This document shows, one piece after another, positions 17,232 through 63,938 of a stretch of 64,000 nucleotides of DNA (its first letter is position 1; every line of letters begins with the position of its first letter). The translations under genes and the position numbers were made by a program. The notes under the pieces are model-generated. The model was not told the DNA's origin, searched no databases, and saw only the letters and a program-made list of their open reading frames with translations. Origin of the DNA: Escherichia phage LorandFenyves_Bas91; sequence record PQ850614.1; one strand, 5' to 3'.

Positions 17232-18200
17232 ATGGGTGCAGGTGGTTTTCGTAAGAATACTGGTCGCAACAACACCACACTCCCGTACAACGTTGGGTTT
17301 CTCAATAATGTACAGGACACAGAAACATATAACGTAGCCGTGTATGATGAATTACAAAAAGTTAGCACAGCTACTAACCAAATGTTCCAAGCTATAGATG
17401 AAATTCACGAAGAGATTGATGTTCGTATTAAAGCTCTTAATGCAATGAATCTACAATTTGATGAGCTTGAGAATAGAATTACTACAGAGATAGAAACAGC
17501 TATTGCAGATATCCAAACACAGATGGGGAATCTCTCCACTGAAGATATTTGGGATAATTCTGTTCAACCTCCTGTAAAATTAGAAAGCACTGTATCTGGC
17601 TTTAAAACAAGTATTGAGGGTAACACAACTAAGATTCAAACGGTAGAAGGTATTGTCAATGACCAAGGTCAAGAGATTGCTTTAGTTCAGACAGAGATTC
17701 AAAATATTAATGGAAGCCTATCTCAGTATATGAAGCTCTCTGAGTATGAAGCTACGTGGGGTGTTAACTCTACAGTAAACGGAAGATATGCTGGGGTCAA
17801 GTTAACTAACAACGGAACAAACAGTCAATTCCAAGTAACAGCTAACAAGTTTATTGTTGGTGATGGCAGCTCTGGTAACACACCTTTTGTGTTTGAGGGT
17901 GGTAGGGCTAGAATGGAATTCGCTGACATAAAGAACGTCAATATCACAACAGCTCAGATTGCTAACGCTAGAATCCAATGGGCACAGATCGATAACGTAT
18001 CCATCTCCAATGCTCAGATTCAGAACTTGTCAGCGGATAAGATTACTGCTGGCTCTATGTGGGGTTCTAACTGGAGACTTACTGTTGGTGGGGACTTTGT
18101 TATGGGTGGCACAGGTGGGGCACAATTGTGGATGAATGGTAACAGAATAGACTTCTACGATGGAAGTGGTGCTCTGAGAATCAGGATAGGGAGTTGGTAA
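17232..18200 (+). CDS. tail fibre-like protein with coiled coil
   Basis: Trimmed from track ORF 17166..18200 to the ATG at 17232, which has a GGAGGA RBS and follows the terminator. Confidence 0.5.
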   Translation: MGAGGFRKNTGRNNTTLPYNVGFLNNVQDTETYNVAVYDELQKVSTATNQMFQAIDEIHEEIDVRIKALNAMNLQFDELENRITTEIETAIADIQTQMGNLSTEDIWDNSVQPPVKLESTVSGFKTSIEGNTTKIQTVEGIVNDQGQEIALVQTEIQNINGSLSQYMKLSEYEATWGVNSTVNGRYAGVKLTNNGTNSQFQVTANKFIVGDGSSGNTPFVFEGGRARMEFADIKNVNITTAQIANARIQWAQIDNVSISNAQIQNLSADKITAGSMWGSNWRLTVGGDFVMGGTGGAQLWMNGNRIDFYDGSGALRIRIGSW

Positions 18201-18201
18201 T

Positions 18202-19233
18202 ATGGCATACGGAATATGGACACAACCAGTAGGGCCGGGGCCAGCAACCCCCGCTCCCTTATTTATTGATAGCGGAAGCACTTTCCCTCAGTTCAAGAAT
18301 AGTATAAGAGGGAGTTTTAACTTTAATGGGGCTGGGAGATCTTTCCCTATTAGTGGATGGGATGGCAGTGGTCAGATAGTTATTGTTCCTACCGGTTCTT
18401 TATGCTGGCAATGGGAAGTCCCTCCTAACCTAGTTCCTGATGTTTATTGTGTGAATAATATCTACGTAGAAAACAGTTCCTCTTTTAGAGTTACTCTGAA
18501 TCAGAACCCCGGCAGTAACCCCTTATTTGACTGTGGGTTCAACGTATATCAAATATGGCCTAGAGCGGATAGGAATTACGGAATTACCTTTTCTAACACA
18601 GCAGACTACTTCTCGATATCTGATAGTGGGGTCGTCGGTCAATGTATTTGGGCTTGGCAGGGGACCATAAACAATGCCCTTCAGATACCAAATATCGGTG
18701 GGTTCAATATGACCAATGCTGTTGTGTTTGCTAATTGGTCTGATGGAGGGATAGGACTATCTTATACCTCTGATGACAGGGTTATTCGTGTTTATCAGAA
18801 CAGACCTTACATAAACGGCAACACTAACGAGGGTGGTTCTGTGTTTGCTAGAGTTGCAGTATTCTGCAATGGAGCAGGAGTTCCGGAACATAATGGAGGT
18901 TTGAATATTTATTCTCCGGGTACCACGCAATGTGTCTTCTCTACTAACAGAACACCTTTCACTGTGGATACTTTTATAGGCTCAGGAGGCGGTAACACTG
19001 GAATGGCATACCCTATGATACCTCTTACCTCTGGAATAGGTGCGATAAAAGGCCAAGGCAGTGGATGGAGATATCAGCAAATGAGATCTCACACCATGAG
19101 TGGTTCTACGATAGGAACGGGCTATGGAAGGTATTTATTTCAGTGGGATCAGAATTACGACCTAGGAGCTGATACTGTAGTTAATTTATCAGTTCCTGTA
19201 ATAAATGCAGCTAAGGTTTTTGCTGGACTATAA
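18202..19233 (+). CDS. hypothetical virion or tail protein
   Basis: 343 aa ORF coupled to the previous gene by a 1-nt gap. Confidence 0.45.
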   Translation: MAYGIWTQPVGPGPATPAPLFIDSGSTFPQFKNSIRGSFNFNGAGRSFPISGWDGSGQIVIVPTGSLCWQWEVPPNLVPDVYCVNNIYVENSSSFRVTLNQNPGSNPLFDCGFNVYQIWPRADRNYGITFSNTADYFSISDSGVVGQCIWAWQGTINNALQIPNIGGFNMTNAVVFANWSDGGIGLSYTSDDRVIRVYQNRPYINGNTNEGGSVFARVAVFCNGAGVPEHNGGLNIYSPGTTQCVFSTNRTPFTVDTFIGSGGGNTGMAYPMIPLTSGIGAIKGQGSGWRYQQMRSHTMSGSTIGTGYGRYLFQWDQNYDLGADTVVNLSVPVINAAKVFAGL

Positions 19234-32236: not shown

Positions 32237-32237
<1 letters not shown>

Positions 32238-32497
32238 TATTTTATTCCACGTTCTTTCAGAGCTTCTAACAATCCATTGTGATTGGCAGCACATTCTGTG
32301 TACTGGTCCTGATACCACTCCAACGTAGTGGCTAGTGCTTTTCCTTGAGCACTTTCTAAAAGAGGTAGGTCAACCCTACATTCAGCTTTTAGGTTTGTTG
32401 GTAAGGGCATTGATTGCCTGCTGTTGTCGCTCATTGAACAAGCTGACAAACTCATCGCTAGCGCAGACATTATAAAAAACTGGTTTAGTTTTCTCAT
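32237..32497 (-). CDS. o-spanin (Rz1-like outer-membrane lipoprotein)
   Basis: Start at internal ATG of track ORF 32237..32596; signal peptide with lipobox LSAC; embedded in the +1 frame of the i-spanin gene. Confidence 0.6.
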
Positions 32498-32732
32498 AAT
32501 GCATCTCTTTATAAATAGTTTCCGTGTTCTTCTTCCAGTTAGATAAACCGGTAAGAACCCTCTGAGCAACTTCATCAGCTGCCCTACTTCTTTCAATCTC
32601 TAACTCTTGCTGGTGCTTCTCTTTGTCCAGATTACTGCTGTCTGTTTGGTACTCGTTAAACTTCATACCACCAAAGAATACAAGAGCTGAGAAAACGATA
32701 AACCCTAAGTTATCACTTAATGTGTTTTGCAT
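32382..32732 (-). CDS. i-spanin (Rz-like)
   Basis: Start at MQNTLSD with GGAGA RBS; N-terminal transmembrane segment LGFIVFSALVFFGG then periplasmic coiled coil; o-spanin gene overlaps its 3' half. Confidence 0.6.
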   Translation of the reverse strand: MQNTLSDNLGFIVFSALVFFGGMKFNEYQTDSSNLDKEKHQQELEIERSRAADEVAQRVLTGLSNWKKNTETIYKEMHYEKTKPVFYNVCASDEFVSLFNERQQQAINALTNKPKS

Positions 32733-32744
32733 GTTGTCTCCAAC

Positions 32745-32768
32745 GAAAAAAGCCACCCGGAGGTGGCT
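32745..32768 (-). terminator. hairpin plus U-tract after SSB gene, immediately before spanin RBS
   Basis: On the minus strand AGCCACC-TCCG-GGTGGCT followed by TTTTTTCG. Confidence 0.5.
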
Positions 32769-34135: not shown

Positions 34136-34589
34136 ATTCCACTCTATTTTTAGTTGCTTCTTCTAAAGTATCAAAAGACCCTAAGTACTTAGTTCTACCC
34201 TTAATTGAGATGTTTGATATGTATTTACCCTTTCTGTTTAGATAAACACCTTTTACACCAGAGGTGTTATTAATGTTCAACCCTTTATTCCAAGAGTTTA
34301 CTTCATTATTAACTTCCCTTAGATTAGAGATAGAGTCATTTGAAGGGTTTCTATCAATATGGTCTATCTGATCTTCAGGTAAATAACCCTTAGCAGAGTA
34401 CCAAATCACATGATACCTGTACACTTGATGGCCTTTAATCCTTATCAGGCATCTTCCGTCTTTTCTGATAGACCCTACTTCCATTCCTTTCCTACATTTT
34501 GTCCCGTTATGAACCTTCCAGAAAACTTTCCCAGAAGATAAATCACAATCAAAATATTTGTCAAGGAGTTCCTCTATCATATCAAACAT
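34107..34589 (-). CDS. HNH homing endonuclease with AP2-type DNA-binding domain
   Basis: HNH core QIDHIDRNPSNDSISNLREV plus C-terminal GVKGVYLNRKGKYISNISIKGRTKYLGSFDTLEEA (AP2-like). Confidence 0.7.
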   Translation of the reverse strand: MFDMIEELLDKYFDCDLSSGKVFWKVHNGTKCRKGMEVGSIRKDGRCLIRIKGHQVYRYHVIWYSAKGYLPEDQIDHIDRNPSNDSISNLREVNNEVNSWNKGLNINNTSGVKGVYLNRKGKYISNISIKGRTKYLGSFDTLEEATKNRVEYERKYTSEL

Positions 34590-34792
34590 CCATCACAGGT
34601 AAGATCTCCGAGAAGGGACAGTGATAACAAACGAGACTGCTCATCGCTATACAGTTGATCAATCTCTTCTTTAAGTTTTGCCAACTCAATGAAATTGATA
34701 AGTTGACCATGTTCAAGACAGTCTGTTTTTAGTATAAATAAAACTTCAGCGTCTGTTGAATCTTCACTTGAATATTTATCAATGTATTCCAT
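34577..34792 (-). CDS. hypothetical protein
   Basis: 71 aa acidic ORF. Confidence 0.4.
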   Translation of the reverse strand: MEYIDKYSSEDSTDAEVLFILKTDCLEHGQLINFIELAKLKEEIDQLYSDEQSRLLSLSLLGDLTCDGCLI

Positions 34793-62146: not shown

Positions 62147-62392
62147 TCATTTCTTAGGTAGAATAATATCCCACAGCCATGCCCACAAAATAAGTGATAT
62201 AAAAATCACAGCAATGATGGGCCATAGAAAAACTATAATTGCTATCTTTGATAAGTTTGGTTCGTTATCCCACCCTCTGAACTCGATACTGCCCTTTACA
62301 TCAAGATATCTTACCAGAGCTGAAACTATCACAATACCTATCAGGTAAACAATCAAGACACTAACAGGACTGATCACAAGGTTGATCTCCAC
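62147..62392 (-). CDS. small membrane protein
   Basis: Two hydrophobic helices; start codon uncertain. Confidence 0.45.
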   Translation of the reverse strand: MEINLVISPVSVLIVYLIGIVIVSALVRYLDVKGSIEFRGWDNEPNLSKIAIIVFLWPIIAVIFISLILWAWLWDIILPKK

Positions 62393-62534
62393 ATGTTTTA
62401 CAAATCACTGGTGAATAACTACAGGCAGGATATACTGACACACCATCAAACGTTTCACACCTACAATCAGGGCACTCACCATTGGATTCCATGTCATCAT
62501 CATCATACACTTCTCCACCACCATAACAGCTCAT
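62361..62534 (-). CDS. small Cys-rich acidic protein (57 aa)
   Basis: Not in the ORF track; GGAG RBS 5 nt upstream of ATG; CPDCRC...CKTCGDQPCDQSC. Confidence 0.4.
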   Translation of the reverse strand: MSCYGGGEVYDDDDMESNGECPDCRCETFDGVSVYPACSYSPVICKTCGDQPCDQSC

Positions 62535-63022: not shown

Positions 63023-63304
63023 TTACCACTCCTTACCGGTTGTTGTTACAGAACCACCACACCACTGCGCATCGGATAAGGTTTTAGTCTCCTCATCTAC
63101 TGCTGCACCATTCAGGCATGAGATACCACTGTAACGCATATCAATTTCACCAGAAGGAACCTTCTCGCCCTTATGCCAGCGAGAAACACAAACACCTTCC
63201 ACTGCTACTGCACACCATCCATCAGGACGGCTCTGTACGCAGCCTGTAAGGGCCACACAGACAAGGAAGATACAGATTAAGGATATTACACCACCCCAAC
63301 TCAT
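63023..63304 (-). CDS. small lipoprotein (possible superinfection-exclusion or receptor-masking protein)
   Basis: Signal peptide with lipobox LTGC; AGGAGG RBS; 93 aa Cys-rich mature part. Confidence 0.55.
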   Translation of the reverse strand: MSWGGVISLICIFLVCVALTGCVQSRPDGWCAVAVEGVCVSRWHKGEKVPSGEIDMRYSGISCLNGAAVDEETKTLSDAQWCGGSVTTTGKEW

Positions 63305-63449
63305 AACTACCTCCTATTTGATTTGGTGGACTATCTGGAATCGAACCAGAAGCTCACTAAGAAAGTAATTCCCACTGTTATAAAAGCACTTGCCTCAACA
63401 GGGATACACTAACTCTGGTGCCGTACCCATACTAGCCCTTGTTTAAAAT

Positions 63450-63525
63450 TGGTCGGGACGGAAGGATTCGAACCCTCGTAAGGCGAGTTAGAAGCTCGCT
63501 GCCTGTTCCACTAGACTACGCCCCG
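63450..63525 (-). tRNA. tRNA-Arg (anticodon UCU), CCA encoded
   Basis: Hand-folded cloverleaf: acceptor CGGGGCG/CGTCCCG, D-arm GTCT-AGTGGAAC-AGGC, anticodon arm GCGAG-CTTCTAA-CTCGC, variable CTTAC, T-arm GAGGG-TTCGAAT-CCTTC, discriminator A, CCA. Confidence 0.8.
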
Positions 63526-63938
63526 ATAGATTTGAAACCGTTATACTTACCTGCACATGATCTGTTACAAAAAGAATTTGCATATTTAACATTTCGCTTT
63601 TCTTTTTCAAAAGATCTTCCACAATAAGAGCAAACAACTGAAATCATTGTTCTTCCAGTAGTTGCTTCTAATGTTGACTTCTTTCTGTGATTTTCTATGG
63701 AAAGTATCTGAAGATTAGATATGTCATCATTAGTTTTATTTCTGTCAATATGATCAACCTCCTCGTCTTCAGTTAGGTACCTGCCTATGTGACAAGACAT
63801 TAAATATCTTGCGTAAGAAATGGTTGTCCTCTCCGTGTCGGTATTATACAAATCAACACGCTTCCTACCATCTCTGCTTGTTCTTAAGTAGCCCAATCGC
63901 CAGTCATTAACGAAGGGGTATTCTAACTCTATCTTCAA
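63516..63938 (-). CDS. HNH homing endonuclease
   Basis: EVDHIDRNKTNDDISNLQIL HNH core plus C-terminal Cys-rich zinc-binding region; its last codons overlap the tRNA 5' end. Confidence 0.65.
   Translation of the reverse strand: MKIELEYPFVNDWRLGYLRTSRDGRKRVDLYNTDTERTTISYARYLMSCHIGRYLTEDEEVDHIDRNKTNDDISNLQILSIENHRKKSTLEATTGRTMISVVCSYCGRSFEKEKRNVKYANSFCNRSCAGKYNGFKSIGA

Follow-up and report, generated by a model that had tools for sequence, protein, structure and literature searches.

A candidate exclusion lipoprotein of the Rtp45 family and a DUF6453 receptor-binding-protein homologue encoded in a kuravirus genome

The window analysed here, a 64,000-nt stretch of Escherichia phage LorandFenyves_Bas91 (PQ850614.1), belongs to a kuravirus, one of the E. 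coli podophages with prolate heads of the phiEco32/SU10 type. It contains a small lipoprotein gene on the minus strand, which is described by the following features:

63023..63304 (-): lipoprotein gene, encoding a 93-aa precursor with an ATG start and a TAA stop; superinfection-exclusion candidate of the Rtp45 family (Pfam PF24052)
63310..63315 (-): Shine-Dalgarno sequence AGGAGG, 5 nt 5' of the lipoprotein ATG and kept in phiEco32 and SU10
63242..63304 (-): predicted signal peptide, residues 1-21, MSWGGVISLICIFLVCVALTG, as read from the sequence
63239..63250 (-): lipobox L19-T20-G21-C22 (LTGC), where C22 is the predicted lipidated cysteine and is invariant in the family alignment
63026..63241 (-): mature domain, residues 22-93, delimited by alignment and comparison with Rtp45

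The product of the ORF at 63023..63304 (-) is MSWGGVISLICIFLVCVALTGCVQSRPDGWCAVAVEGVCVSRWHKGEKVPSGEIDMRYSGISCLNGAAVDEETKTLSDAQWCGGSVTTTGKEW, the N-terminus of which cannot be longer, since a TAG stop is found in frame four codons before the ATG. The initial annotation had described a 93-aa lipoprotein with an LTGC lipobox, an AGGAGG ribosome-binding site and a Cys-rich mature domain, located among small early genes, and each of these points was upheld by the present analysis. Besides C22, the mature protein has four cysteines (C31, C39, C63 and C82), all invariant in 11 close homologues, while the gene is one of a series of closely spaced small ORFs on the minus strand, the ATG that follows being situated 1 nt past its stop codon. 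A search at the gene revealed no convincing promoter or terminator belonging to it. In SU10, the orthologue gp104 is contained in an early block (CDS 69-125), which was classed via homology to experimentally classed phiEco32 genes (PMC8948821), and an early timing of the present gene would be expected from this homology.

The signal peptide begins with MSWGGV and has no lysine or arginine in its n-region, which is atypical, yet this start is invariant among the kuravirus homologues. A basic start (MK or MR) occurs in the Oekolampad homologue and in nearly all divergent representatives of the family outside the kuravirus clade, the exceptions being Rtp45 (MTNLIK) and P0013 (MSGK). The residue following the lipidated cysteine decides the membrane destination of a lipoprotein (the +2 sorting rule); as this residue is valine here, sorting to the outer membrane would be expected. 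The C-terminus (TTTGKEW) is hydrophilic and there is no C-terminal membrane segment.

Orthologues of the gene are gp106 of phiEco32 ("putative phage lipoprotein") and gp104 of SU10. Its product is identical in protein sequence to phiEco32 gp106, and all six nucleotide differences between the two genes are synonymous and in the third codon position. Together with the matches of the protein to Pfam PF24052 and phrog_4281, these all-synonymous differences indicate that the ORF is a real gene and not a chance reading frame. The 2 kb surrounding it are 99.6% identical to SU10, 95.8% (full-length) to CHD5UKE1 and 89% to phiEco32.

Just upstream of the lipoprotein gene, an ORF for an HNH endonuclease (63516..63938, minus strand) overlaps a tRNA-Arg(TCT) gene (63450..63525) by 10 nt. 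The HNH gene is absent from both SU10 and phiEco32, where the tRNA-Arg is a different sequence variant, and the segment 63450..63938 thus looks like a cassette replacement associated with a homing endonuclease. The tRNA-Arg gene is separated from the lipoprotein gene by a spacer of about 120 nt (63318..63437, minus strand), which is present in SU10, missing in phiEco32, and ends in a sequence resembling the 3' half of a tRNA (GGTTCGATTCCAGATAGTCCACCA). This spacer received no call from ARAGORN or Rfam and does not fold better than shuffled sequences (z -0.88); a tRNA remnant is the probable explanation. The ORF 62361..62534 (-), located three genes downstream from that for the lipoprotein, encodes a 57-aa acidic protein with nine cysteines (CPDCRC...C...C..C....C...C), which matches phrog_13157, a group of unknown function.

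The sole Pfam match of the lipoprotein is PF24052 ("Phage lipoprotein family"), with an E value of 2.4e-36 and 124 bits against a cut-off of 27, spanning residues 3-93 of the protein and positions 1-80 of the 80-position profile. When a profile of the 11 close homologues was searched against 177,635 PDB sequences at a cut-off of E 10, a single chain was matched, 9RPS chain D (E 3e-17), which is Rtp45, the superinfection-exclusion lipoprotein of siphophage Rtp, resolved by cryo-EM on the periplasmic face of LptDE (PMC12685063). The two proteins share 43% identity over 70 aa (BLASTP, E 1e-19), rising to 61% in the core formed by residues 26-61. In a 20-sequence family alignment, the lipidated cysteine (C22, 20 of 20), G29, C31, C39 and G60 are invariant, where C31 and C39 are the counterparts of the Rtp45 C30-C38 disulfide; this disulfide pair is thus conserved throughout the aligned family. 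The conserved hairpin core follows the pattern G-x-C-x3-W-x2-G-x2-VP-x-GE-x-D-x-RY-x-G. Lipoproteins of the kuravirus clade have an extra segment of approximately 20-28 residues with a second cysteine pair (C63/C82), and these two residues covary perfectly in the alignment, both being found in seven sequences and neither in the other 13, which argues for a second disulfide, C63-C82. When 1.84 billion representatives were scanned exhaustively with HMMER, 16 clusters were returned, 15 of which are small lipoproteins of 73-109 aa, while the remaining one, a protein of 3,417 aa, matches only weakly and locally. An AF2 model of the lipoprotein, built from the 11 close homologues, was poor (pLDDT 53) and was kept out of the fold search; AF3 likewise fails on Rtp45 according to the authors of the PNAS study (PMC12685063). 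NCBIfam has no named model for the lipoprotein or for the DUF6453 protein described below. The annotation of this protein as putative lipoprotein dates from 2008, and the prototype of its family is now structurally explained.

A resistance phenotype of Rtp45 is reported, as described in the PNAS paper. In the cryo-EM structure, Rtp45 occupies the periplasmic outer-membrane interface of LptDE in its closed state, wedged between LptE and LptM; a β-sheet joins Rtp45 residues 30-35 to LptD residues 318-323, a C30-C38 disulfide is present, and the Rtp45 hairpin reaches up the LptD lumen (PMC12685063). Extracellular loop 4 of LptD is thereby pushed by up to 20 Å, blocking the open state that is required by the receptor-binding protein, so that exclusion is explained by steric loop displacement rather than long-range allostery, and binding of the receptor-binding protein is structurally precluded (PMC12685063).

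Taken alone, a lipoprotein of this family is ordinary, and the interest of the present one comes from its pairing with a second gene. Since in both Rtp and Oekolampad the lipoprotein gene directly precedes that of the receptor-binding protein, the window was searched with Rtp44 and RBP-Oekolampad. A single ORF matched both queries (E 1.7e-9 and 3.6e-10, respectively); it is listed here with the gene directly upstream of it:

18202..19233 (+): orthologue of SU10 gp19, a 343-aa DUF6453 protein and proposed partner of the lipoprotein, identified by homology to Rtp44 and RBP-Oekolampad
17232..18200 (+): tail needle, orthologue of SU10 gp18, comprising a coiled coil and a J-like tail-tip domain (PF09327), identified by Pfam and alignment; proposed docking site for the DUF6453 protein

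The ORF at 18202..19233 matches nearly the whole Pfam DUF6453 profile (E 1.9e-23, 83.7 bits against a cut-off of 25), a family to which Rtp44 and RBP-Oekolampad belong as well (E 1e-113 and 1e-121, respectively), and also matches PDB 9RPT chain C, which is RBP-Oekolampad on the open LptDE (E 2.8e-9). An AF2 model of its product, based on 30 homologues, reached a pLDDT of 85.6 and a pTM of 0.87. When this model was compared with the PDB by Foldseek, 9RPT_C was the single significant match (E 2.8e-13, probability 1.00; next match E 0.1), with TM-scores of 0.62 (query) and 0.82 (solved part). Judging from sequence and predicted fold, the gp19-type protein is homologous to LptD-binding receptor proteins. 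Its identity to the proven LptD binders is low (approximately 25%), and its specificity could thus have shifted.

The tail needle carries PF09327 with an E value of 4.6e-27. Over its last ~250 residues it can be aligned with the C-termini of the J-like central fibres of T1, Oekolampad and ESP2949-1, and both the needle and the J-like protein of ESP2949-1 end in GSW; the needle of the podophage thus resembles the distal portion of the central fibre of siphophages. The distal end of J is thought to be the display site of siphophage receptor-binding proteins of the LptD type (PMC8594841). As gp19 does gp18 here, the DUF6453 gene of ESP2949-1 comes after J on the same strand, and the gene order needle, DUF6453 and SLT transglycosylase is preserved in metagenomic relatives at 45% identity. 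The infection model of SU10 proposes that the needle touches the outer membrane and sets off the formation of the nozzle, a step that would be compatible with a needle capped by a receptor-binding protein.

The SU10 gp19 is annotated as a "membrane protein" and is otherwise uncharacterised. In the cryo-EM study of SU10, gp16 was assigned as short fibre, gp17 as nozzle, gp18 as tail needle and gp20-24 as ejection proteins, while gp19 is unmentioned. Orbitrap mass spectrometry of SU10 preparations detected 34 proteins, among them gp16-18 and gp20-24 but not gp19. In the 2022 study of SU10, only major gel bands were analysed and the needle was resolved to 15 Å with threefold averaging. From its homology and position, the gp19-type protein may be a virion component, presumably located at the tip of the tail needle.

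Homologues of the lipoprotein were found by tblastn in 384 phage records and those of the gp19-type protein in 301. Both genes occur in the same groups, namely Gordonclarkvirinae, Drexlerviridae, Dhillonvirus and Klebsiella weberviruses, with about 100 records of Gordonclarkvirinae containing the lipoprotein gene and likewise about 100 containing the gp19 gene. For both proteins, the closest relatives outside Gordonclarkvirinae are those of Klebsiella weberviruses, which carry the two genes together. Co-occurrence was further tested on sampled phage records, comprising six siphophage loci from the lipoprotein matches in addition to Rtp, Oekolampad and TR1. The DUF6453 gene is present at all six loci and in the three additional phages. 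It lies immediately downstream of the lipoprotein gene in five of the six (ESCO41, Shfl1, FP, 12397IV and SU57), and the two genes are adjacent in eight of the nine phages, the exception being Cronobacter phage ESP2949-1. The coordinates in ESP2949-1 are 34364..34657 for the lipoprotein gene and 43658..44632 for the DUF6453 gene, a distance of 9 kb; in Klebsiella phages NJS3 and BHM14 they are likewise separated, by 9-10 kb. In the present phage the lipoprotein and gp19 genes are not adjacent; 45 kb lie between them, they are encoded on opposite strands, and they belong to different temporal classes. Such separation is not unique to kuraviruses, since the weberviruses and ESP2949-1 are unlinked too; adjacency is common but not universal. 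Neither a lipoprotein gene of this family nor a DUF6453 gene was found in T1, which has FhuA as receptor and Cor as exclusion protein, or in TLS, which has TolC as receptor. In the whole genome of Salmonella podophage 7-11, a phiEco32 relative sharing 41 genes with it, homologues of the needle, gp19 and the lipoprotein are all missing together. All seven BASEL siphophages with this type of receptor/exclusion module have been found experimentally to be LptD-dependent (PMC8594841).

The lipoprotein is therefore probably a receptor-masking exclusion protein of the Rtp45 family, anchored in the outer membrane and directed at LptDE, the binding of which would be expected from the resemblance of its sequence to Rtp45. 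The initial annotation had proposed that it blocks the phage's own receptor, a suggestion that gains support, by inference, from the homologue of an LptD-type receptor-binding protein encoded in the same genome. As a masking lipoprotein and a gp19-type protein are present together, LptD is implied as the terminal receptor of kuraviruses, a reading that we consider somewhat better than an even bet. We put about the same modest trust in the broader proposal that kuraviruses carry the complete LptD recognition and exclusion module of small siphophages, with LptDE as terminal receptor, and that this module is split in two, one part being a DUF6453 protein at the needle tip and the other an early lipoprotein of the Rtp45 type.

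In the proposed mechanism, expression of the long early operon would supply the lipoprotein shortly after infection; following its export, C22 would be lipidated and the protein would be delivered to the inner leaflet of the outer membrane. Its disulfide-stapled hairpin core would dock on the periplasmic side of the LptDE translocon as in Rtp45, driving extracellular loop 4 of LptD outward and locking the closed state, such that receptor-binding proteins of the DUF6453 type could no longer insert from outside. With LptDE present at approximately 400-600 copies per cell, an early lipoprotein could saturate it. Further infection would thus be excluded, and progeny would be kept from adsorbing to the debris of lysed cells. 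The phage's own gp19-type protein, presumably on the needle tip, would use LptD as terminal receptor after the long fibres have bound the O-antigen.

The published receptors of kuraviruses are the O-antigen and a surface target of the short fibres, and mutants resistant to ES17 had lost their O-antigen. The BASEL extension paper likewise gives the O-antigen and short-fibre targets as receptors and leaves LptD unmentioned for this group. Being an essential gene, lptD would seldom turn up in resistance screens, which would favour loss of the O-antigen.

The alternative that survives best, which we regard as unlikely, is that the lipoprotein binds LptDE in the manner of Rtp45 but excludes only competing LptD-dependent siphophages, the kuravirus itself not using LptD and gp19 having another role. 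This would agree with the lack of gp19 among the proteins detected in SU10 virions, with a literature naming only glycans and short-fibre targets as receptors, and with the unlinked positions and different temporal classes of the two genes. However, the predicted fold of gp19 is that of a receptor-binding protein inserting into LptD and has no other match in the PDB, gp19 directly follows a needle with a J-like tip, which is the position of this protein in siphophages, and needle, gp19 and lipoprotein are jointly missing from 7-11.

Slightly less probable still is a shift in specificity, where gp19 would bind a different outer-membrane protein and the lipoprotein would mask it. The low identity of gp19 to the proven LptD binders would allow for this, as would the extra insert of the lipoprotein with its second, putatively disulfide-forming, cysteine pair, which Rtp45 lacks, and diversification of receptor modules is known from small siphophages (PMC8594841). 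However, the part of Rtp45 that contacts LptD (strand 30-35, the disulfide and the hairpin) is the best conserved, at 61% identity, the host species and hence LptD are the same, and every phage with this module type that was tested experimentally depends on LptD (PMC8594841).

Considerably less probable than either is a role in host takeover, in which early locking of LptDE would keep LPS and O-antigen from being exported and exclusion would be a by-product. Rtp45 does block the movement of loop 4 needed for the open state (PMC12685063), the gene lies among early host-takeover genes (PMC8948821), and the O-antigen is the primary receptor of this phage group. However, LPS already on the surface would outlast a lytic cycle as short as this, and complete modification of the O-antigen during lytic infection is deemed futile by the BASEL authors.

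A lysis function, as outer-membrane spanin subunit or unimolecular spanin, has hardly any credibility and was rejected: spanin subunits may also be small phage lipoproteins, but the window encodes a separate overlapped spanin pair elsewhere (32237..32756, minus strand), a two-component spanin of the overlapped type is listed for phiEco32 (PMC6139136), the lipoprotein ends in the hydrophilic TTTGKEW with no C-terminal membrane segment, its downstream neighbour has no membrane segment either, and its gene is located in the early region and not in the lysis region. The spanin pair consists of:

32382..32756 (-): i-spanin, an Rz-like spanin matching phrog_1152
32237..32497 (-): lipobox ORF of the spanin pair, beginning MRKLNQFFIMSALAMSLSAC..., the only other lipoprotein candidate in the window

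The preferred reading thus remains that of an LptDE-directed exclusion lipoprotein paired with a gp19-type protein that uses LptD. In the literature searched, no paper was found linking Kuravirus, phiEco32 or SU10, or DUF6453 in kuraviruses, to LptD, and both the kuravirus-LptD link and the role of gp19 appear to be new, while the lipoprotein family was already known. If the reading is true, a terminal receptor, the conserved LptDE translocon, is named for a whole subfamily of E. coli podophages (Gordonclarkvirinae, including therapy candidates), use of LptDE would be demonstrated in a podophage group for the first time, and the uncharacterised SU10 gp19 beside the tail needle gains a role. 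Kuraviruses and LptD-dependent siphophages should then exclude each other, which is relevant to cocktail design, and divergent natural ligands would be added for both faces of LptD, an antibiotic target.

Among known systems, the initial annotation had compared the protein with Llp of phage T5. The proposed function of receptor masking and exclusion is supported by the homology to Rtp45, whereas Llp as a relative is not retained. The two would share a class of mechanism, in which an early periplasmic lipoprotein of the outer membrane binds the phage receptor from inside and stops attachment from outside, but the target of Llp is FhuA while LptDE is predicted here. Membership in the Llp family was rejected, as the PDB profile search to E 10 gave 9RPS_D alone and the only Pfam match was PF24052. 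Cor of T1, phi80 and N15 is likewise a small exclusion lipoprotein encoded by a phage genome, but it is found with FhuA-type loci that have no DUF6453 gene. Membership in the Cor family was also rejected, as the alignment is limited to 26 columns covering the signal peptide and lipobox and no homology of the mature domain was detected.

Oekolampad is closer in both components. Its bas18_0026 (SE-Oeko) belongs to the same lipoprotein family, with approximately 33-36% identity, and its bas18_0025 (RBP-Oeko, 9RPT chain C) has the same fold as that predicted for the gp19-type protein (TM 0.82 on the solved part). The receptor-binding proteins differ in that their identity is only 17-25% and that RBP-Oeko caps the J-like central fibre of a siphophage, whereas the present one is encoded after the needle of a podophage.

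The closest counterpart is Rtp45, which shares with the present lipoprotein the lipobox cysteine, a cysteine pair of the C30-C38 type, the hairpin motif, a C-terminal KEW and the host species, each genome also encoding a homologue of the DUF6453 receptor-binding protein. Rtp45 is shorter (76 aa versus 93 aa), and the second covarying cysteine pair (C63/C82) and the signal peptide free of lysine and arginine are found only in the present protein. The rtp45 gene lies immediately upstream of the receptor-binding-protein gene and next to gpJ in a siphophage, whereas its counterpart here is part of an early podophage operon, 45 kb away from the gp19 gene. Of the features that characterise the Rtp45 family, the profile match, the lipobox signal, the disulfide cysteine pair with its hairpin core, and a DUF6453 gene in the same genome were found in this phage, whereas the position next to the receptor-binding-protein gene was not.
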